36,858 nucleotides of DNA from a virus. The notes below the pieces were generated by a model. That model ran no database searches. It saw only the letters and a list, made by a program, of their open reading frames with translations, and was not told the DNA's origin. Each line of letters begins with the position of its first letter. The stretch's first letter is position 1. Positions 4,520 to 12,968 of this stretch are shown here, in pieces. The translations under genes and the position numbers were made by a program. The DNA lies in IMG/VR virus record IMGVR_UViG_3300046455_000369. One strand, 5' to 3'.

Positions 4520-6967
4520 GTGGCTCTGCTCGCCGAGATGGGGTGGGGTGGCCTGGTCCAGGACCCGGCCACCATCACGTGGACGGACATCTCGACCTAC
4601 GTGGACATGGCGACGGGAGTGACCATCACCCGGGGCGCTTCCGACGAGCTGTCGGAGACGCAGCCGGGGACGGCCACCCTGCGCCTGGACAACGCCGACG
4701 GCCGGTTCACCCCGGGCAACGCGGCCTCGCCCTATTACCCGTTCGTGCGCCGCAACGCGCCGATCCGGATCTCGGTGGCGGCCATCCCCGTCCGGACCGG
4801 ATCGGCCCCGTACCTGCTGGAGCAGCTCGGCGACGACTTCGACAACAACCAGGTCGACACCACGCTATGGACGGCGTCGGGCGGGGCCAGCGAAACGAAC
4901 GGGCGCATGCGCCTGCCCCTCGTGGCCGCAGGCACCACGGCCCGGTTCGTGAGCCTGCGTCAGTGGAAACTGCAGGGGTCGAAGCTGACGGCGAAGCTGT
5001 GCACCATCCCTGCTGGCGGCGGCAGCGCGTTCGGGTCGGTGACGATGTACGTGGAGGCGGTCGCCAGCAACACGTGGCTTCGCTGGACGTACAACGCCCT
5101 CGACGGGAAGCTGCGCGCGTACAACGACGCCGGGTCTACCGACCCCTCGCCGACCGTGCTCACCTACGACCCGATCCAGCACGCGTGGCTGCGGATCCGC
5201 GAGGCGTCGGGGACCGTGTACTTCGAGACCAGCCCGGACGGCGTTGTGTGGACGGTATGCCGGTCGCTGGCCACCCCGGCGTGGGTCGTGACGGACACGG
5301 TGCAGGTGGAATTCGCCGCGAACCGCTCCGGCGGCACCAGCGACTACGCCGAGTTCGACCTGGTCGGCGCCGATGTCCGGCCCCGCTTCTACGGCATGGT
5401 CAACGAATTCCCCGTGGACTGGGAAGGCCTCAGCAGCCACGTGCAGGTCACCTGCACGGACCTGTTCAAGCGGCTCAACAGGCTGCCCACGCTCCGGTCG
5501 ATGCTGACCGAGGAGATCGCCAAGATCTTGCCCACCGTGTACTACCCGCTGACCGAGCCGTCCGGGGCGGCATCCGCCGGCGACATCTCCGGCAACGCCC
5601 TGCCCTCGATGGCCATCACGCAGGTGTCGACGGGCGGCACGCTCACCATGGGCACCGACACCGGGCCGACCGAGACCGGCGACAGTACCCCGACGTTCAC
5701 CCCGTCCTCGGCGACGGCCGGCCTGTACCTCGCGGTCGACCTGGGGGTGGCCACCCAGCAGGCGCTCACGTCCTCCGTGTTCTCGGTCGAGGGCTGGTTC
5801 AAGACGACGACGACCGGCCGGGCCATCCTCAGCCTGTACTCACCGGACCTGCAGTGCGTCCAGGTCGTGTCCCTGTCGGCGTCCGGCGCCCTGCAGATCG
5901 AATGGACTGCCTCGGGTTCCAGCACCCTGACGGTGGAGGCCATCGCCGGAACCAGCGGCCTGAACGATGGGGCCTGGCATCACTTCGAGTGGGACCAGAG
6001 CGGCAGTGGCAGCGTCGCCGTGGACGGCGTGGTGGTCGACCCCAGCGTGCCCGTCACGGACGGGTTCGACCAGCGGACCCTTCACATCGGCGGATACCGC
6101 GGCACCCGGCTGTGGTCCGGGTCGATCGCGCACGTCGCGCTGTATGCGCGGTCCTCGATGGGCAGCGTCCTCGCCACCCACTACGCCACGGGCATGACCG
6201 GGAACGCTGGCGAGACCGCAGACTCCCGGATCGAACGGTTCTGCGACTATGCGGGCCTGGTCAACGTCTTCTTCCAGGGGAGCACGTTCGACCCGATCGC
6301 GTCCCAAGGGCCTGGCGGCACGGGCGTGGTGGCGCGGATGCGGGAGGTGGAAGCCACCGAGTCGGCGAAACTCTTCGCGGACCGCGACGACTTCGGCATG
6401 ACGTTCCAGTCCCGGGACCTGCGCTACAACCCGTCGCCCGCTGGCGAGGCGTTCACGATCGCCTACGCAGACCTGGAGACCAAGAGCGTCGAGTTCGCCG
6501 ACGACGACCAGAAGCTGATCAACAGCATCGAGGCATCCCGCCCGGGCGGCGCCACCCAGAAAGTCACTGCTCCGTCCAGCATCCTGGCGTTCGGGGTGTA
6601 CGACCCGGGCTCCCTCTCGATCCTCAAGACCAGCGACAACAGCGTGCTGGACGCGGCGTCCTGGCGGGTATCCCGCTACGCCAACCCGGGGCCCGAGCTG
6701 CGCGAGGTGCCAATCGAGGCGTACACGATGGCCAACTACACGGGCATCCTCGCCGCCGACATCTCCAGCTACTTCAGCGTCACCGCCATGCCGTCGCAAG
6801 CGCCGTTCTCCTCGGTACGGGTCACCGTCGAGGGCTACACGGAGACGCTCAAGGAGCGGTCGCATCTGATCCAGTTCCACACCAGCACCACCAACAACGA
6901 CTCCGTGTGGGTGCTGGACGACCCGGTCTACAGCGTCCTCGACTACACCACCCGCCTCGCCTACTAG
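4520..6967 (+). CDS. Distal tail protein (Dit, siphovirus tail component) enlarged by two ConA/LamG-like lectin-fold insertions (815 aa)
   Basis: GTG 4520 lies 3 nt after the TMP stop. The N-terminus ITWTDISTYVDMATGVTITRGASDELSETQPGTATLRLDNADGRFTP is Dit-like. aa ~100-285 form a jelly-roll-like insert (HAWLRIREASGTVYFETSPDGVVW). aa ~395-560 form a LamG-type insert (FSVEGWFK...DGAWHHFEW...LHIGGY...GSIAHVALY). A Dit-like C-terminal part follows. Confidence 0.8.
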   Translation: MALLAEMGWGGLVQDPATITWTDISTYVDMATGVTITRGASDELSETQPGTATLRLDNADGRFTPGNAASPYYPFVRRNAPIRISVAAIPVRTGSAPYLLEQLGDDFDNNQVDTTLWTASGGASETNGRMRLPLVAAGTTARFVSLRQWKLQGSKLTAKLCTIPAGGGSAFGSVTMYVEAVASNTWLRWTYNALDGKLRAYNDAGSTDPSPTVLTYDPIQHAWLRIREASGTVYFETSPDGVVWTVCRSLATPAWVVTDTVQVEFAANRSGGTSDYAEFDLVGADVRPRFYGMVNEFPVDWEGLSSHVQVTCTDLFKRLNRLPTLRSMLTEEIAKILPTVYYPLTEPSGAASAGDISGNALPSMAITQVSTGGTLTMGTDTGPTETGDSTPTFTPSSATAGLYLAVDLGVATQQALTSSVFSVEGWFKTTTTGRAILSLYSPDLQCVQVVSLSASGALQIEWTASGSSTLTVEAIAGTSGLNDGAWHHFEWDQSGSGSVAVDGVVVDPSVPVTDGFDQRTLHIGGYRGTRLWSGSIAHVALYARSSMGSVLATHYATGMTGNAGETADSRIERFCDYAGLVNVFFQGSTFDPIASQGPGGTGVVARMREVEATESAKLFADRDDFGMTFQSRDLRYNPSPAGEAFTIAYADLETKSVEFADDDQKLINSIEASRPGGATQKVTAPSSILAFGVYDPGSLSILKTSDNSVLDAASWRVSRYANPGPELREVPIEAYTMANYTGILAADISSYFSVTAMPSQAPFSSVRVTVEGYTETLKERSHLIQFHTSTTNNDSVWVLDDPVYSVLDYTTRLAY

Positions 6968-7429: not shown

Positions 7430-7939
7430 GTGACATCCACTCCCCGGACCTGGGTGGTCGGCGAGGTGGTCACCGGTGCGCTGATGAACCAGGAGATCCG
7501 CGACCAGTTCAACAGCTTCTTCGGGGCCTGGACCAGCTACACCCCGACGTTCGGGTCCGCGGGCACCGCCCCGGCAGTGGGTAACGGAACTCTGTCCGGC
7601 CAGTACATGAAGGTCGGCCGGAGCGTCCTCGTATCCCTGGTCCTCACCGTCGGCAGCACCACCACCTTCGGCAGCGGCAACCTGAACTTCAGTCTGCCCG
7701 CCACCGTGTCCGCGTCGGCGGCTGGCGCCGTCCTCAACGCCAGCACCAGCCGCACGGGCACACAGAACTTCGTCGTGGGTGCCGCCCCGCTGAGCAACAA
7801 CGGCACCAACACCGGCACCATCTGGTTCGCGTCGACGAGCACCTCGGGCGACTGGGACGCGTGGACCACGTCCACGCCGTGGACCCTGGCGGCCGGTGAC
7901 ATCGTCCGCGTCTGGGGCACCTACCAGGCCTCTTCCTGA
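7430..7939 (+). CDS. Minor tail protein / putative receptor-binding tip (169 aa)
   Basis: GTG 7430. The N-terminal motif PRTWVVGEVVTGALMNQEIRDQF is typical of actinophage minor tail proteins. The rest is Gly/Ser/Thr-rich and beta-like. Confidence 0.65.
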   Translation: MTSTPRTWVVGEVVTGALMNQEIRDQFNSFFGAWTSYTPTFGSAGTAPAVGNGTLSGQYMKVGRSVLVSLVLTVGSTTTFGSGNLNFSLPATVSASAAGAVLNASTSRTGTQNFVVGAAPLSNNGTNTGTIWFASTSTSGDWDAWTTSTPWTLAAGDIVRVWGTYQASS

Positions 7940-7958
7940 CCCACCCCTCACCCCGCAC

Positions 7959-7983
7959 GCCCCGAGCCGATGGCCGGGGCTTT
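7959..7983 (+). terminator. Hairpin plus short T-run after the tail genes
   Basis: gccccgagcc-gat-ggccggggc followed by ttt. It lies between the minor tail gene and the endolysin gene. Confidence 0.5.
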
Positions 7984-8003
7984 CGTCATTCCTGGAGCCC
8001 TTC

Positions 8004-8855
8004 ATGCCTGACCTGTGGATGCCCGGTGCGCAGCACCTGGACATAGGCGACCACGCGCCGACCGATGGCGGCCCGGCCAAGGCCATCGCGCACATCACCT
8101 GGGACAAGAACGCCAGCGCGGCCAAGCCGGCGGACCTGGTCCCGTACACCGCGCTGCGCAGCTACTTCGCGGGCGGCGGCGCCCCGGTCGCCCCGCACAT
8201 CCTCTGGGATGTCTTCACCGGGTCCTTCACCCAGTTCGTGCCCGCCAACTCGAGGTCGAAGAGCCTGGTCGACCAGGCGGGCGGCACCCGCACCAACCGG
8301 GCCGGCAGCGTGGTCATCCAGATCGAGGCGTTGTTCTTCCCGTACTGCCGGGTCGGGACGAAGGTGTACGCCAAGCTGGCCGACACCCCGTGCAAGGGCT
8401 GGGACGACCTGCACGCCTGGGTGAAGTCGTGGGGTGTCGCCGACGCCTGGCCGAACGGCCGCCCCGAGAACTGCACCCGCAACGAGAAGACGTGGGAGAC
8501 GAAGAGCGGCTGGTACCCGCATAAGGGCGTCCCCGAGAACGACCACGACGACCCGCTGTCCTGGCCTGCGTTCCCCGTCTCCCCGCCCGCGGCGGGGCAG
8601 CCGAAGCACGAGCCGTTCCCGGGCGCCTCGTTCTTCGTGGCCGGCCGCCGTTCTCCGATCATCGCCGCAATGCACAAGCGACTCGTCGCCGTCGGCTGCA
8701 ACAAGTACGCCAGCCCGGCCAACCCTGACGTCTGGGGTTCGGGCGACGAGCGGTCCTACGCCGCGTGGCAGCGGCACCTCGGCTACGCCGGCAGCGACGC
8801 CGACGGCCAGCCCGGCAAAACCAGCTGGGACCGACTCCAGGTCCCCATCGTCTGA
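8004..8855 (+). CDS. Endolysin (cell-wall hydrolase domain plus C-terminal Streptomyces-type peptidoglycan-binding domain), 283 aa
   Basis: GGAG, then ATG 8004. The C-terminus FPGASFFVAGRRSPIIAAMHKRLVAVGCNKYASPANPDVWGSGDERSYAAWQRHLGYAGSDADGQPGKTSWDRLQVP matches the wall-binding module common in Streptomyces proteins and phage lysins. A holin gene follows. The catalytic class cannot be resolved by eye. Confidence 0.75.
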   Translation: MPDLWMPGAQHLDIGDHAPTDGGPAKAIAHITWDKNASAAKPADLVPYTALRSYFAGGGAPVAPHILWDVFTGSFTQFVPANSRSKSLVDQAGGTRTNRAGSVVIQIEALFFPYCRVGTKVYAKLADTPCKGWDDLHAWVKSWGVADAWPNGRPENCTRNEKTWETKSGWYPHKGVPENDHDDPLSWPAFPVSPPAAGQPKHEPFPGASFFVAGRRSPIIAAMHKRLVAVGCNKYASPANPDVWGSGDERSYAAWQRHLGYAGSDADGQPGKTSWDRLQVPIV

Positions 8856-9167: not shown

Positions 9168-9434
9168 ATGGATGCCGCCCTCGTCACAGCAATCGGCGTG
9201 ATCGTCAGCGCCATCGTGGCCGGGGCGGCAGCCATATACGGCTCCAGGGCCGCGGGACGGGCCCAACGGGAGGGCAACGCGGTGAACGGCTTCAACAGCC
9301 TCACGGACCAGCTCCAGGAGGAACGTAAGGAACTGCGCTCCGACGTAGCCGCCCTGCGCCTGGAGCTGGCCTCGGAGAAAGCGGAGACGGCGCGGCTTCG
9401 GCTGCTCGTGCAGCAGCTGGGGGGCACGCCATGA
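9168..9434 (+). CDS. Lysis-cassette membrane protein (N-terminal TM plus coiled coil), 88 aa
   Basis: GGAGG RBS, ATG 9168. TM segment ALVTAIGVIVSAIVAGAAAIYG is followed by a heptad-like LQEERKELRSDVAALRLELASEKAETARLRLL. Confidence 0.55.
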   Translation: MDAALVTAIGVIVSAIVAGAAAIYGSRAAGRAQREGNAVNGFNSLTDQLQEERKELRSDVAALRLELASEKAETARLRLLVQQLGGTP

Positions 9435-10105
9435 CGCGCACCCAGCGTGTGCTCGCCAGACGGTGGAAGCCCATCGCCCTCGTGGCCGCTCTGCTGGCCC
9501 TCACTGGCGCGGTCCTCCTCGTGTACGTGCGCGTCCAGGCCGAGGCCACGCGCGCCAACCAGCTCGCCGACGAGGCCGACCTGCGGGGCACTGCCGTGAC
9601 CACCCTGGCCGGGGACGTCCGCGTGCTGCGCGCACAGATCAAGGCCCGGGGCGGCACCCCGGCCGCGCCTGACCCGGCCAAGGCCGTCAAGAACCTGCCC
9701 GACCGGGCCGAGGTGCCCGTGCCGATTCCCGGCCCGCCCGGCCCGCCTGGGCCGAAGGGCGACCCGGGCGAGCCCGCACCCACGATCACTCCGTCGCCCG
9801 GTGCTTCCGGGGCGGCCGGCGCCAACGGTTCGGCCGGCGCGACCGGCCCTCAGGGGCCGCAGGGTGAACCGGGCGCCGACTCCACCGTCCCCGGACCCCA
9901 AGGACCTCAGGGGCCCGAGGGCGAGCGAGGCCCACAGGGCCCCGCCGGCCCCAGCTGCCCGGACGGCTACAGCCTCCAGGCACCCAGCTGGGACCCGGAC
10001 GCCCTTGTCTGCCGCCGGGACGGCGCACCGCCCCCAAGCCCCAGCCCGACCGGGCTGCTCGGCCTCGCCACACTCGCTACGACCGCCTCCTACCGGAAGC
10101 TGTAG
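9431..10105 (+). CDS. Secreted or membrane-anchored collagen-like (G-X-Y repeat) protein, 224 aa
   Basis: ATGA overlap start. N-terminus RRWKPIALVAALLALTGAVLLVYVRVQA, then a coiled segment. 21 G-X-Y triplets occur in three blocks (aa 101-175, nt 9731-9955). A Cys-containing C-terminal domain and a hydrophobic/basic tail (PTGLLGLATLATTASYRKL) follow. Confidence 0.75.
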   Translation: MTRTQRVLARRWKPIALVAALLALTGAVLLVYVRVQAEATRANQLADEADLRGTAVTTLAGDVRVLRAQIKARGGTPAAPDPAKAVKNLPDRAEVPVPIPGPPGPPGPKGDPGEPAPTITPSPGASGAAGANGSAGATGPQGPQGEPGADSTVPGPQGPQGPEGERGPQGPAGPSCPDGYSLQAPSWDPDALVCRRDGAPPPSPSPTGLLGLATLATTASYRKL

Positions 10106-10164: not shown

Positions 10165-10431
10165 TCAGTCTTCCGGCTGCTCGGCGGCTGGCAGGGCGAT
10201 GACGAACACGCCTTTCCCCTGCACGCCCTGCACCAGGCCCTCGGTGGCGAGGACCTCGAGCGCGGTCTTGATGGTGCGCCTCGACACCACACCGCTCGTT
10301 TCGACCTCGAGTTCGGCCTGGGACGGGAGGCGGCGGCCTACCGGGATCTCGCCGCGCCGGATCCGGTCGCGGAGCACGGTGGCCAGCTGTACGTACAGCG
10401 GCGTCATCGCATCGCGGTCCAGCTCGATCAT
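10165..10431 (-). CDS. Stand-alone GntR-family winged-HTH regulator (about 88 aa, no effector domain)
   Basis: MIELDRDAMTPLYVQLATVLRDRIRRGEIPVGRRLPSQAELEVETSGVVSRRTIKTALEVLATEGLVQGVQGKGVFV is a typical GntR N-terminal domain. The start is uncertain (10431 or 10407). The upstream part of the track ORF (to 10566) is discounted. Confidence 0.75.
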   Translation of the reverse strand: MIELDRDAMTPLYVQLATVLRDRIRRGEIPVGRRLPSQAELEVETSGVVSRRTIKTALEVLATEGLVQGVQGKGVFVIALPAAEQPED

Positions 10432-10487
10432 GCTGTGACCGTAAGAGCACCACTCGTGCAGGCATAGATCTGGATAGCCCGTCCGAG

Positions 10488-10517
10488 GACGTACCAAGAC
10501 GTACCAAGTAGGCGTAC
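10488..10517. promoter_or_regulatory. Candidate operator: perfect tandem 10-bp repeat GACGTACCAA x2 plus a third CGTAC one helical turn further
   Basis: gaggACGTACCAAGACGTACCAAGtaggCGTACag lies in the divergent intergenic region between the GntR-like gene and the Cys-rich operon. GT..AC cores are typical of GntR operators. Confidence 0.5.
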
Positions 10518-10592
10518 AGTCCGGAGGCACGAGAAACCCCCGCAGCCTGGCAGGGCCCGGGGGCACGGTCCACGCCGAAGAGGAGCGTCGAC

Positions 10593-10790
10593 ATGCCAGA
10601 GACTACGCAGACCGAGGACACCCCGACCAGCCCCCGCGCAATGGGCTGGTGCCACTGGCACAAAGGCCTCGGGGAGACCCCGCGGCTGATCCAGGTCGTA
10701 GAAGCCGGCTCCGGACCGGGCGCTCGGATGTTCGCCTGCGGCCGCTGCTCCACCCGGTTCAACCTCACCCCGTTCGCCGACCAGCCGTGA
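10593..10790 (+). CDS. Small Cys/His-rich protein 1 (65 aa)
   Basis: RBS gaagaggag, ATG 10593. Motifs: GWCHWHKG...MFACGRCSTRFNLTP. Confidence 0.6.
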   Translation: MPETTQTEDTPTSPRAMGWCHWHKGLGETPRLIQVVEAGSGPGARMFACGRCSTRFNLTPFADQP

Positions 10791-11008
10791 CGGCGCCGGA
10801 GCTACCGAACGCGGCCCGGCTGACCCGCGGCCAGCACTCGGGATGGAACTGCGTGCTCTGCCACGCCCGGCTCACCCGGGGCGCGGTCTGCGCCGGCCGA
10901 GCCGAGGGCCGCATCGGCGCCCACGACATGGGCATCGACGTGTACGCCTGCCCCAGCTGCGCCACCCGATACGGCATCACCGACCGGCCAGGAGGTACCC
11001 CGCGATGA
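10787..11008 (+). CDS. Small zinc-ribbon protein 2 (73 aa), distant paralog of protein 1
   Basis: GTGA overlap start at 10787. Motifs: GWNCVLCHARL...VYACPSCATRYGITD. Confidence 0.55.
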   Translation: MTAPELPNAARLTRGQHSGWNCVLCHARLTRGAVCAGRAEGRIGAHDMGIDVYACPSCATRYGITDRPGGTPR

Positions 11009-11208
11009 AGACGATCAGCCAGGCGACGAAGGACCTCATGGCCAACGCGGACGCCTCGGGCTACCGGGCGGCCGGCCTCTGCGCCTCCAGGCACTCCAGT
11101 GGCGCGCTCTGCACCCGCAGCGCCAGCGATGGCCACGGCGCGGGCGAACACGGCAACCCCTACGTGGACCGGAAGTCCGTGGCGGACGCGTTCGGCCTGC
11201 GCTGGTAG
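11005..11208 (+). CDS. Small Cys/His-containing protein 3 (67 aa)
   Basis: ATGA overlap start at 11005. Sequence: MKTISQATKDLMANADASGYRAAGLCASRHSSGALCTRSASDGHGAGEHGNPYVDRKSVADAFGLRW. GC3-rich. Confidence 0.5.
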   Translation: MKTISQATKDLMANADASGYRAAGLCASRHSSGALCTRSASDGHGAGEHGNPYVDRKSVADAFGLRW

Positions 11209-11249
11209 AGCTCCGGTCCCGGCGCAGACGGCGTGCCGGGGCCGGACCG

Positions 11250-11285
11250 ACGGCCGCCTGTTCCCCCCGAGCAGGCGGCCGTTTT
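11250..11285 (+). terminator. Rho-independent terminator after the Cys-rich operon
   Basis: acggccgcctg-ttccccccgag-caggcggccgt followed by tttt/g. Confidence 0.75.
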
Positions 11286-11471
11286 GCGTCTACCTTCGAT
11301 TCGAAGGCGATCACTCACAGGCCCGAATTGAGCCGCAAAGCCGCAGGTCAGCGGGCTGGACTTCCATGACGAACGTCAAGCTCAAGCATGATCCTTTTAG
11401 TGGTGTCGCAGGACCATATTGGGGTTCCCGAACCTGAGACAAAGACGCCTCTAGCGGAGCACACTCGGGGC
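11286..11471. other. Candidate attP-containing and int-promoter region
   Basis: A 186-bp AT-richer non-coding gap directly upstream of the serine integrase gene. It has three short palindromes: CCTTCGAtTCGAAGG (11293-11307), TGACGaaCGTCA (11367-11378) and GGTTCccGAACC (11423-11434). Position is by analogy with other serine-integrase phages. The exact core is not identifiable by eye. Confidence 0.35.
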
Positions 11472-12968
11472 ATGAAGAACACCCAGACGGGGGGCGCCCA
11501 GACGCGCGCGGCCATCTACTGCCGCATCTCGCAGGACCGCACGGGCGCCGGTCTCGGCGTCGACCGGCAGCGCGAGGACTGCCAGGCCCTCGCCGACCGG
11601 AACGGCTGGACGGTCGTCGAGACCTACGTCGACAACGACGTGAGCGCGTACTCGGGGAAGAAGCGCAAGGACTACGAGCGCATGCTGGCCGACCTCGCCG
11701 AGGGCAAGGCCACCGTTGTGATCGTCTGGCACACGGACCGGCTCCACCGCTCGGTCACCGAGCTGGAGAAGTACATCAACATGTGCGAGCAGCGCGGCGT
11801 CACCACCCACACCGTGCAGGCCGGGGAGCTCGACCTCGCTTCACCCACCGGGCGGATGGTGGCGCGGATGCTCGGCAACGTCGCCCGATACGAGTCCGAG
11901 CACAAGGGCGACCGGATCGCGAGGAAGCGCCGGCAGAAAGCCATGGCAGGCGAGTGGGCCGGCGGGATCCGCCCGTTCGGCTGGGGCCTGCCCACCGGCG
12001 AGACGGTCAAGAAGGTGGACCGGAAGACCGGCGACGAGATCGAGGTCCCCGAGCTGGACATGCTCAAGGCCGTGCCCGAGGAGGCCGAGGCCCTGCGCTA
12101 CTGGACGGATCACATCCTGTCCGGCGGGTCGATCCGGTCGCTCGTGCAGTGGTGCGCGGACAAGGGCATCACCTCGACCCGCGGGAACGCCGTCACGCAC
12201 ACCGATATGCGCGACATGCTGCTGCGCCCCAGGAACGCCGGGATCGCCGTCTACAAGGGCGAGGAGGTCGGCCCCGGGCGGTGGGAGCCGATCGTCGCCG
12301 AGACGAAGTTCAGGGCCGTCTGCGCGGTCCTGAGGAACCCGGAGCGGACGACGACCCCGGGCGCCCAGCCGAAATGGCTGGGATCACTGCTGTACCGGTG
12401 CGGCCGCGGGGATTGCCCGGAGTTCGTGTACGTCACCCAGTCGGGCGGCCGCCGGTATCCGTCGTACCGGTGCCAGACCGGGCACGGCGGCGGCCGGCGC
12501 GCCGAGATCGTCGACCAGCATGTCGAGGACACGGTCGTCGAACGGCTGGAAAGAGACGACGCCCCCGACCTGCTGGAGCCCGCACCCGAGGGCGTGAACG
12601 TATCGGCGCTGCAGGCGGAGGCCGAGGACGTCCGGGGCCGGATGCGGAACCTGGCCGGGATGTACGGGGCCGGGCAGATCGACGAGGTGCAGTTCGCCGA
12701 GGGCACCGACACGGCCCGCGGCCAGCTGGAGGGGATTACGCGGCAGCTGGCGCGCGCAGCCCGGGTGGATCCGCTCGTGGAGCTCGTCGGCGCGAAGGAT
12801 GTACGGAAGGCGTGGAAGGCGCTGACCTTGGACCGGAAGCGGTCGGTGCTGCGTTCCCTGGTCACGGTGACGCTGAAGACTCCGCGCGCCGGCCGGATGC
12901 CCGACGGCGGCTACTTCGACTACGACGCCGTCGTCTTTGAGTGGAAGCGGGGATCACCGATCGGATGA
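11472..12968 (+). CDS. int: Large serine recombinase (phage integrase), 498 aa
   Basis: MKNTQTGGAQTRAAIYCRISQDRTG... is a resolvase-type catalytic domain with the Ser nucleophile context YCRIS. A recombinase domain (ARYESEHKGDRIARKRRQKA), a zinc ribbon (YRCGRGDCPEF...YRCQTGHGG) and a coiled-coil region follow. Confidence 0.95.
   Translation: MKNTQTGGAQTRAAIYCRISQDRTGAGLGVDRQREDCQALADRNGWTVVETYVDNDVSAYSGKKRKDYERMLADLAEGKATVVIVWHTDRLHRSVTELEKYINMCEQRGVTTHTVQAGELDLASPTGRMVARMLGNVARYESEHKGDRIARKRRQKAMAGEWAGGIRPFGWGLPTGETVKKVDRKTGDEIEVPELDMLKAVPEEAEALRYWTDHILSGGSIRSLVQWCADKGITSTRGNAVTHTDMRDMLLRPRNAGIAVYKGEEVGPGRWEPIVAETKFRAVCAVLRNPERTTTPGAQPKWLGSLLYRCGRGDCPEFVYVTQSGGRRYPSYRCQTGHGGGRRAEIVDQHVEDTVVERLERDDAPDLLEPAPEGVNVSALQAEAEDVRGRMRNLAGMYGAGQIDEVQFAEGTDTARGQLEGITRQLARAARVDPLVELVGAKDVRKAWKALTLDRKRSVLRSLVTVTLKTPRAGRMPDGGYFDYDAVVFEWKRGSPIG

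Follow-up and report, generated by a model that had tools for sequence, protein, structure and literature searches.

A three-gene operon for small Cys/His-rich proteins beside the integrase gene of a temperate Streptomyces phage is a copy of a mobile cassette widespread in Streptomyces

The viral record IMGVR_UViG_3300046455_000369 of IMG/VR comprises 36,858 nucleotides (the window, by which we mean this whole stretch of DNA), and positions 10593-11208 of its plus strand are occupied by an operon of three open reading frames (ORF1, ORF2, and ORF3) for small Cys/His-rich proteins. The operon lies between a gene for a GntR-like regulator and a strong terminator, beyond which the integration site attP and the integrase gene follow. 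Comparison with Streptomyces genomes, phages, and metagenomes establishes that the operon is one representative of a mobile cassette frequent in Streptomyces. ORF1 and ORF2 are obligatorily linked in this cassette, whereas its third position can be filled by different genes, ORF3 among them. An earlier reading of the DNA letters alone (here called the original prediction) had proposed that the three proteins include two zinc-ribbon paralogs and might serve as an activator set, as a recombination directionality factor (RDF), or as a defence or anti-defence module.

The operon and its three genes

ORF1 (10593-10790, plus strand) encodes 65 amino acids and has an ATG start codon with GAGGAG 8 nt upstream. 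ORF2 (10787-11008, plus strand; 73 amino acids) starts at a GTG within the GTGA overlap with the stop codon of ORF1 and lacks a separate Shine-Dalgarno sequence. ORF3 (11005-11208, plus strand; 67 amino acids) starts at an ATG within the ATGA overlap with the stop codon of ORF2 and is preceded by AGGAGG, 9 nt upstream. The G+C content at third codon positions (GC3) is 0.88, 0.89, and 0.96 in ORF1, ORF2, and ORF3, respectively, against 0.60-0.70 at codon positions 1 and 2. Protein homologues were found for each of the three ORFs, and comparison with homologous loci gave ratios of nonsynonymous to synonymous substitution rates (dN/dS) of 0.2-0.97, mostly 0.3-0.5. The three ORFs are coding, without strong constraint; coordinates, GC3, and homologues bear out the sizes and overlaps that were initially read from the sequence. 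The public gene call begins ORF1 at Met17 (49 amino acids), but the longer form of 65 amino acids is favoured because its N-terminus, M-x-E-x-T-Q, is kept in the homologues.

A mobile cassette with a fixed pair of genes

Six-frame profile searches covered 401 sampled Streptomyces species genomes. The ORF1 profile matched in 74 of these genomes and the ORF2 profile in 80 (about 55 near full length at E < 1e-8), i.e., each family is present in roughly 15-20% of the genomes. Several copies can occur in one genome, as in G012 with eight ORF1-like and five ORF2-like genes. When the coordinates of both searches were compared, 24 adjacent ORF1-ORF2 pairs on the same strand were obtained, distributed over 20 of the 401 genomes, and in all 20 neighbourhoods that were examined at paired matches ORF1 lies directly upstream of ORF2. 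As a rule, the two genes are joined by a stop/start overlap or separated by a gap of 0-30 nt. The same arrangement recurs in soil metagenomes, where ORF1 was found just upstream of ORF2 in about 20 of 36 loci.

Moreover, the pair is carried by mobile elements. It is present in the isolated Streptomyces phages Ignacio, HFrancette, Eklok, Eastland, Piccadilly, Cumberbatch, and AxeJC, with the gene order lysin ... helix-turn-helix (HTH) protein, gp26, gp27 (ORF1-like), gp28 (ORF2-like), gp29 (with four CxxC motifs), and serine integrase. It is also found in IMG/VR proviruses, at the extreme end of the predicted element. Two kinds of context thus recur for the module, namely prophage ends behind the lysis genes and islands resembling the integrative and conjugative elements of actinomycetes (AICEs; L004, L035, and L048 among the comparison loci). 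In one locus (L046:4986-5393, minus strand) a single reading frame unites an ORF1-like with an ORF2-like domain, which supports a physical interaction of the two proteins. The ORFs and their Cys pattern are both conserved in related loci. Genes in the comparison loci were called with a simple GC3-based caller, by which some small ORFs were missed.

Variants of the pair were also observed. In three loci (L007:5615-6004, L055:5995-6360, and L059:1660-1974) the ORF1 homologue has an additional Cys-rich C-terminal domain, H-x3-C-x2-C-x6-C, that replaces a separate ORF2. The same domain forms the end of Cys-rich proteins of 110-160 amino acids encoded upstream of ORF3 in L008, L009, and L037.

The interchangeable third gene and the neighbouring regulators

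The slot after ORF2 is mostly translationally coupled (offsets of -4 or -1) and is occupied by different genes. Apart from ORF3, it can hold a ribbon protein of 52-57 amino acids with the pattern CxxC...CPxxC, a protein of 150-175 amino acids with the motif DxGWHxFxLHT, Cys-rich proteins of 110-160 amino acids with an N-terminus similar to the first half of ORF2, or, in phage Ignacio, gp29. The coupled protein of 150-175 amino acids was observed in five loci (L023, L028, L033, L050, and L051) with the fuller motif D-x-GWH-x-F-x-LHT-x-x-Y-x-x-FC, and it has no match in Pfam.

ORF3 itself belongs to a narrow family. It has the pattern GYRAAGLC..H..G..CTR...D.HG.G.H.NPY......GLRW, with the conserved residues C26, C36, H49, Y53, and W67, and its close relatives share 32 invariant columns. 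When 1.84 billion representatives were searched exhaustively with its profile, three true small relatives were returned. A broader ORF3-like group retains G24, C26, C36, H49, Y53, and W67. ORF3-like genes occur in 27 of the 401 Streptomyces genomes; at least 10 of them lie beside ORF1 or ORF2 matches, once between the two. The long proteins P0030 (7482 amino acids) and P0031 (1035 amino acids) were considered as further relatives and rejected, as 36 and 8 stretches of them, respectively, match only the Gly/His-rich centre of ORF3, which most likely reflects compositional repeat similarity and not homology.

A DNA-binding regulator adjoins nearly every locus, and most homologous loci carry one of XRE/WhiJ type, not of GntR type. 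Typically, this is a WhiJ-type XRE protein (HTH_31+DUF5753) that is encoded divergently or upstream together with a DUF6879 protein and a protein of 86 amino acids; the WhiJ-like HTH_31+DUF5753 regulator was found at L001, L004, L006, L007, L014, L032, L033, L046, L049, and L051. In the window as well as in L002, L039, L040, and L047, the same divergent position is taken by a mini-GntR protein of 76-88 amino acids, and further loci have other HTH_31 proteins of 300-450 amino acids. The trio of 86-amino-acid protein, DUF6879 protein, and WhiJ-like HTH_31/DUF5753 regulator recurs divergently beside the ORF1 operon (L001:3945-5580, L007:3761-5396, L014:5771-7373, L032, and L033), and its 86-amino-acid member has no match in Pfam.

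Protein families and predicted folds

None of the three proteins has a usable match in Pfam, PHROGs, NCBIfam, or PADLOC, and profile searches of PDB sequences returned chance matches only, in agreement with the initial statement that they fall outside known families. Word-indexed protein searches retrieved 6-14 close Streptomyces homologues for each ORF, all of them annotated as "hypothetical".

ORF1 begins with the conserved M-x-E-x-T-Q start, followed by a variable acidic or polar N-terminal tail and then by C-x2-H ... C-x2-C, and the core of the family reads GWC-x-W-H ... GSG ... AC-x2-C-R ... L-x-P. At the four putative ligand positions (C20, H23, C49, and C52) Cys and His are exchanged across the family for each other only (CHWH, CSWC, CHWC; ACxxC, ACPSH), which points to a metal-ligand signature. 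ORF2 has the pattern LP..a.LT..Q..GW.C..C ... AGRA.G..GAH.L.I.VYAC..C, with a family core of LP..a.LT..Q..GW.C.WC...L..GA..AG.A.G..GAH.L.I.VY.C..C. Here, C22 and C25 are invariant, whereas conservation reaches at least 90% at C55 and C58 and the spacing of this second knuckle varies from 2 to 5 residues. These patterns were derived from narrower alignments because a combined ORF1 and ORF2 alignment and a diverse ORF2 alignment were too variable for pattern scans.

An AlphaFold2 model of ORF2, calculated from an alignment of 36 sequences, has a predicted local distance difference test score (pLDDT) of 84.7 and a predicted template modelling score (pTM) of 0.69. It consists of short N-terminal helices, a long beta-hairpin (residues 34-43 and 46-54) between two Cys knuckles, and a C-terminal helix. 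A Foldseek search with this model returned nothing significant in PDB (best E 1.2) or BFVD (best E 0.076). The weak neighbours include ribosomal protein eS26 and zinc finger 1 of PARP-1, with template modelling (TM) scores of 0.35-0.46. Both are zinc-binding nucleic-acid binders, and like generic zinc-ribbon and treble-clef proteins ORF2 would have two Cys/His knuckles around a beta-hairpin; it differs from them in lacking any significant structural or Pfam match. The zinc-ribbon models of Pfam all scored below the cut-off (E 0.04-0.3).

The Cys/His pattern that the original prediction had noticed in the first two proteins is conserved in both families, and the zinc-ribbon fold that it suggested is supported by the conserved ligand positions together with the confident model of ORF2. 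Judged by their conserved residues, ORF1 and ORF2 are two distinct families of small zinc-ribbon-type proteins, which would presumably bind zinc. That they are paralogs, as had been claimed, was not established. BLASTP aligned the two over 23 residues (E 4e-4), and the probabilities given by hhalign were 27% over 16 columns and 19% over 34 columns with 28 and 32 sequences, so that a common ligand topology is all that is shared with confidence and paralogy is possible.

Several other assignments were considered and rejected. A WhiB-like (Wbl) Fe-S protein was dismissed since the Whib model of Pfam does not match ORF1-3 at E <= 1, a precursor of peptides made by ribosomes and modified after translation (RiPPs) was dismissed since modifying enzymes are not encoded nearby, and secreted or membrane peptides were dismissed since the sequences have no hydrophobic segments. 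A chance PDB match of ORF3 to a bacterial metallothionein (E 0.43) was likewise set aside, as ORF3 has only two Cys residues.

Candidate promoter region and conserved 5' leader

A candidate operator and promoter is located at 10488-10520, upstream of the operon. It contains a perfect tandem repeat of GACGTACCAA (two copies, 10488-10507) followed by GGCGTACAGT, which holds the -10-like hexamer TACAGT. Near-identical operator-like sequences precede the ORF1 homologue in L055 and L085. From this arrangement, the tandem GACGTACCAA repeats are probably the operator of the GntR protein, overlapping the promoter. The tandem repeat and a related third site are also kept in other loci of the mini-GntR type.

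Between this candidate promoter and ORF1, a conserved 5' leader with two predicted hairpins (10534-10592, plus strand) ends at the ORF1 start codon. Hairpin P1 spans 10537-10563 and hairpin P2 spans 10568-10592, the latter enclosing the Shine-Dalgarno sequence GGAG. This stretch of about 60 nt ahead of the ORF1 start codon is conserved irrespective of the type of regulator. P1 has an outer stem, CCCC(C)G/C(G)GGGG, a bulge, and an inner stem that varies by locus (GAGGC/GCCUC, GGCCG/CGGCC, or GACCG/CGGUC). After a short spacer, P2 (CGACU...AGUCG or ACGC...GCGU) is formed around GGAG, and the element terminates with TCGAC-ATG.

A covariance model of the leader was built from 11 copies and, in 621 kb searched, detected 29 sites with E <= 0.01, its top match in the window being the window's own copy at 10534-10595 (23.5 bits, E 0.0011). 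P1 is predicted at the same position in all 29 distinct copies. In the model-fitted alignment 95.6% of the cells are paired and 10 of the 15 pairs have double changes, a number that none of 500 shuffles reached; slid controls gave 36-51% paired cells. This alignment was used because RNAalifold, when run on a plain MAFFT alignment, recovered only seven pairs as indels misalign the stem. A search of positions 10380-10700 against Rfam 15 gave only chance-level matches (E 0.17 and 8.3). Related operons without ORF1 (L011, L021, L031, and L075) begin with this leader, too. At least 29 related operons have the leader in all, with compensatory substitutions; it is a candidate new cis-regulatory RNA, and a DNA-level palindrome is the less likely reading.

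Genomic setting

The ends of the contig (1-127 and 36732-36858) are identical over exactly 127 nt. The window is therefore a complete, circularly permuted, circular genome of a temperate Streptomyces phage in its non-integrated form, with a G+C content of about 70%, and the term "future prophage end" that had been used for the location of the operon fits. In a nucleotide search against phage records the operon region had no match.

Upstream of the operon, the plus strand encodes a lysin-like protein (7896-8855), two holin-like proteins of 88 amino acids each, and a collagen-repeat protein (9431-10105, PF01391). These are followed on the minus strand by the gene for the mini-GntR regulator (10165-10431, 88 amino acids), which is divergent from the operon. 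Residues 12-77 of its 88 residues match PF00392 (E 1.2e-12), and according to Pfam the protein consists of the winged helix only, without an effector domain. Downstream, a tandem intrinsic terminator (11212-11287, plus strand) is formed by hairpin A (11212-11246) and hairpin B (11249-11283), followed by TTTT; the predicted RNA fold has a free energy of -71.7 kcal/mol (z = -7.3), and none of 200 shuffles was equally stable. The gene of a large serine integrase with Resolvase and Recombinase domains (11388-12968, plus strand) follows the terminator, and a divergent pair of XRE-type HTH genes lies beyond it. The placement of the operon that was first proposed, i.e., at the extremity of the prophage, shielded by a terminator, next to a regulator of its own and with attP and int ahead, is confirmed by these flanking genes and by the stable double hairpin.

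Proposed function and alternative explanations

Functionally, the operon comes closest to the WhiJ-type cassettes of Streptomyces (whiJ-bldB-abaA and iosA-whiJ9-bldB9) and to korSA-pra of the AICE pSAM2, to which we return below. In S. venezuelae, WhiJ9 activates the adjacent small gene iosA of the cassette iosA-whiJ9-bldB9 (PMC10294661). In most homologous loci, similarly, a WhiJ-like XRE gene (HTH_31+DUF5753) lies upstream of the ORF1-ORF2 operon or is divergent from it, both kinds of cassette are present in multiple copies per genome, and in both the regulated neighbour is a small protein without a recognizable fold, as is IosA (PMC10294661). On the other hand, the window has a mini-GntR in place of the WhiJ-like regulator, and a DUF397 (BldB-like) or AbaA-like protein is not found here, nor does DUF397 of Pfam match ORF1-3. 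The partners at ORF1-ORF2 loci are instead DUF6879 and the 86-amino-acid protein. ORF1-3 are of zinc-ribbon type and apparently unrelated to IosA, with which they share no family match, and the ORF1-ORF2 cassette is carried on phages and AICEs.

The explanation that we favour, with somewhat less than even confidence, is a repressor-gated accessory operon that encodes a hetero-oligomeric zinc-ribbon complex and acts like the output of WhiJ-type or Kor-type cassettes. Transcription would start from the promoter overlapped by the tandem GACGTACCAA repeats, most likely under repression by the divergent mini-GntR protein. The mRNA would open with the two-hairpin leader, whose P2 hairpin, by enclosing the ribosome-binding site, would offer a second, post-transcriptional point of control. 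ORF1, ORF2, and ORF3 would then be translated in a coupled fashion, and the tandem terminator would seal the unit from attP and int. Because of their conserved adjacency, their coupling, and their natural fusion, ORF1 and ORF2 are expected to cooperate, as different small zinc-ribbon proteins, in a hetero-oligomer, while ORF3 would be one of several swappable third partners that set the output. The complex most likely binds a protein of the host or of the element, or a nucleic acid, as a small regulatory adaptor, and it probably tunes host physiology or development, or the maintenance or transfer state of the element, rather than the directionality of the integrase. We infer the repression by GntR, the binding of zinc, the formation of the complex, and the adaptor function from the arrangement and conservation described above.

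Several points weigh against this explanation. The regulator in the window is of GntR type and not of WhiJ type, so that the analogy to WhiJ rests on the homologous loci. No enzymatic or classical DNA-binding domain is recognizable in ORF1-3 with Pfam, and thus no domain points to a biochemical activity. The AlphaFold2 model of ORF3 (14 sequences) reached a pLDDT of 52 and was dropped from the fold search. The covariation of the leader was counted on an alignment fitted to the model, which is somewhat biased toward structure, and the leader could partly be an inverted repeat at the DNA level. Finally, the shuffling of the third gene and the dN/dS values, which in some pairs rise to 0.8-0.97, are equally typical of conflict genes, i.e., those of defence and anti-defence.

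A bolder version of the favoured explanation, which we consider unlikely, is that ORF1 and ORF2 assemble with the swappable third protein into a zinc-dependent complex, which would bind the two-hairpin leader of its own mRNA (translational autoregulation). Together with the neighbouring repressor, the complex would then constitute an unrecognized genus-wide mobile regulatory system, by means of which prophages and AICEs reprogram the development of Streptomyces or their own transfer. Streptomyces species are the main producers of antibiotics, and similar small-protein cassettes control their development and secondary metabolism. A definition of the cassette would offer a way to study the communication of temperate phages and integrative elements with Streptomyces hosts. 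It would also name two or three widespread uncharacterized protein families, one of them with a confident predicted fold without structural neighbour, and with the leader it would extend the cis-regulatory RNAs listed for actinobacteria by one candidate.

The most serious rival, to which we assign a low but appreciable probability, is that the operon is defence or counter-defence cargo, i.e., a small, fast-evolving, modular superinfection-exclusion or anti-defence set that is borne by prophages or AICEs and expressed from an att-proximal moron position. This possibility had been raised at the outset, and it keeps its weight because of the accessory position between the lysis genes and int, the HTH regulators that adjoin nearly all loci, the swappable third gene with its shuffled domains, the relaxed purifying selection (dN/dS 0.3-0.97), and the several copies per genome on mobile elements. 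In acr-aca loci, variable small proteins are likewise encoded beside a conserved HTH repressor. A link to a known defence system, however, did not materialize, as neither PADLOC nor PHROGs gave a match, and a nuclease, NTPase, sensor, or membrane domain was not recognizable. ORF1 and ORF2 form a fixed pair genus-wide, unlike typical hypervariable anti-defence genes, and ORF2 is basic by sequence and not an acidic DNA mimic. A type II toxin-antitoxin-like system, in which ORF1 and ORF2 would be a small overlapping antitoxin/toxin couple that stabilizes the element, would account for two small overlapping genes that sit on mobile elements and occur in multiple copies in genomes. It would also suit the neighbouring XRE/DUF5753 regulators, a kind that has been proposed as toxin-antitoxin-like in Streptomyces (PMC10364602). 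Yet Pfam, NCBIfam, and PADLOC contain no matching toxin or antitoxin family, the natural ORF1-ORF2 fusion would be unusual for such a pair, and the usual autoregulated layout of two genes has room neither for a dedicated regulator encoded apart from them nor for a third coupled gene, which makes this explanation scarcely credible.

Two further alternatives connect the operon to integration and transfer. If one of ORF1-3 were an RDF, it would bind the neighbouring serine integrase and permit excision by recombination of attL with attR. The operon is situated directly upstream of attP and int, the same neighbourhood is found beside the serine integrase of phage Ignacio, and a repressor dedicated to the operon would ensure that an RDF stays silent in the lysogen. 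Known small RDFs (phiRv1 Xis, SPBc SprB, TP901-1 Orf7, and phiJoe gp52) are 58-110 amino acids in size, can be encoded close to the large serine integrase gene, within one or two ORFs of int, and have no common sequence (PMC5311408). The distribution of the module is nevertheless independent of serine integrases: among five proviruses with the module, two have serine integrases, two have tyrosine integrases (G404 and G405), and in one no integrase was detected. The presence of the same ORF1/ORF2 module in tyrosine-integrase proviruses makes a dedicated RDF role unlikely. The module is moreover spread, often in multiple copies, over the fraction of Streptomyces genomes given above, it occurs in AICE-like islands, and many chromosomal copies have no integrase nearby; when the loci L001-L019 (chromosomal, metagenome, and IMG/VR) were inspected over 6-8 kb, none contained a relative of the window's serine integrase. 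The provirus records have the module at one end and the integrase at the other, so that in a prophage the whole element separates the two genes that are adjacent in the circular genome of the window. ORF1-3 also have no similarity to any PHROGs phage family and show a zinc-ribbon pattern in place of the Xis-like HTH. The RDF proposal is accordingly much weakened and in our view very improbable, and for those who build tools from serine integrases this means that the RDF still lacking for this integrase is probably not to be sought among these small genes near att.

A switch of the Kor/Pra type, which we also judge unlikely, would make the mini-GntR protein a Kor-like repressor and one or more of ORF1-3 a Pra-like activator of excision, replication, or DNA transfer once derepressed. 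Its model is the AICE pSAM2, where the GntR-family protein KorSA represses pra, whose product activates rep-xis-int (PMC2440964). In pSAM2 as in the window, a GntR-family regulator adjoins a small gene on an integrative Streptomyces element near integration functions (in the window the repression is inferred and the regulator is divergent from the small-protein operon), and the module is also present in the AICE-like contexts L004, L035, and L048. The window differs from korSA-pra in that its GntR protein of 88 amino acids lacks an effector-binding domain and that three coupled Cys/His-rich genes stand in place of the single pra. The prevalence of XRE/WhiJ-type over GntR regulators at the homologous loci, the presence of the module in the Ignacio-group phages, and the absence of a recognizable DNA-binding domain in ORF1-3 argue against such a switch.

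As a separate observation, Nudix genes adjoin the regulator gene in two of the comparison loci (L005:3684-4217 and L012, approximately 4916-5596). They are reminiscent of the Nudix immunity factor Pif, which accompanies KorSA in pSAM2.

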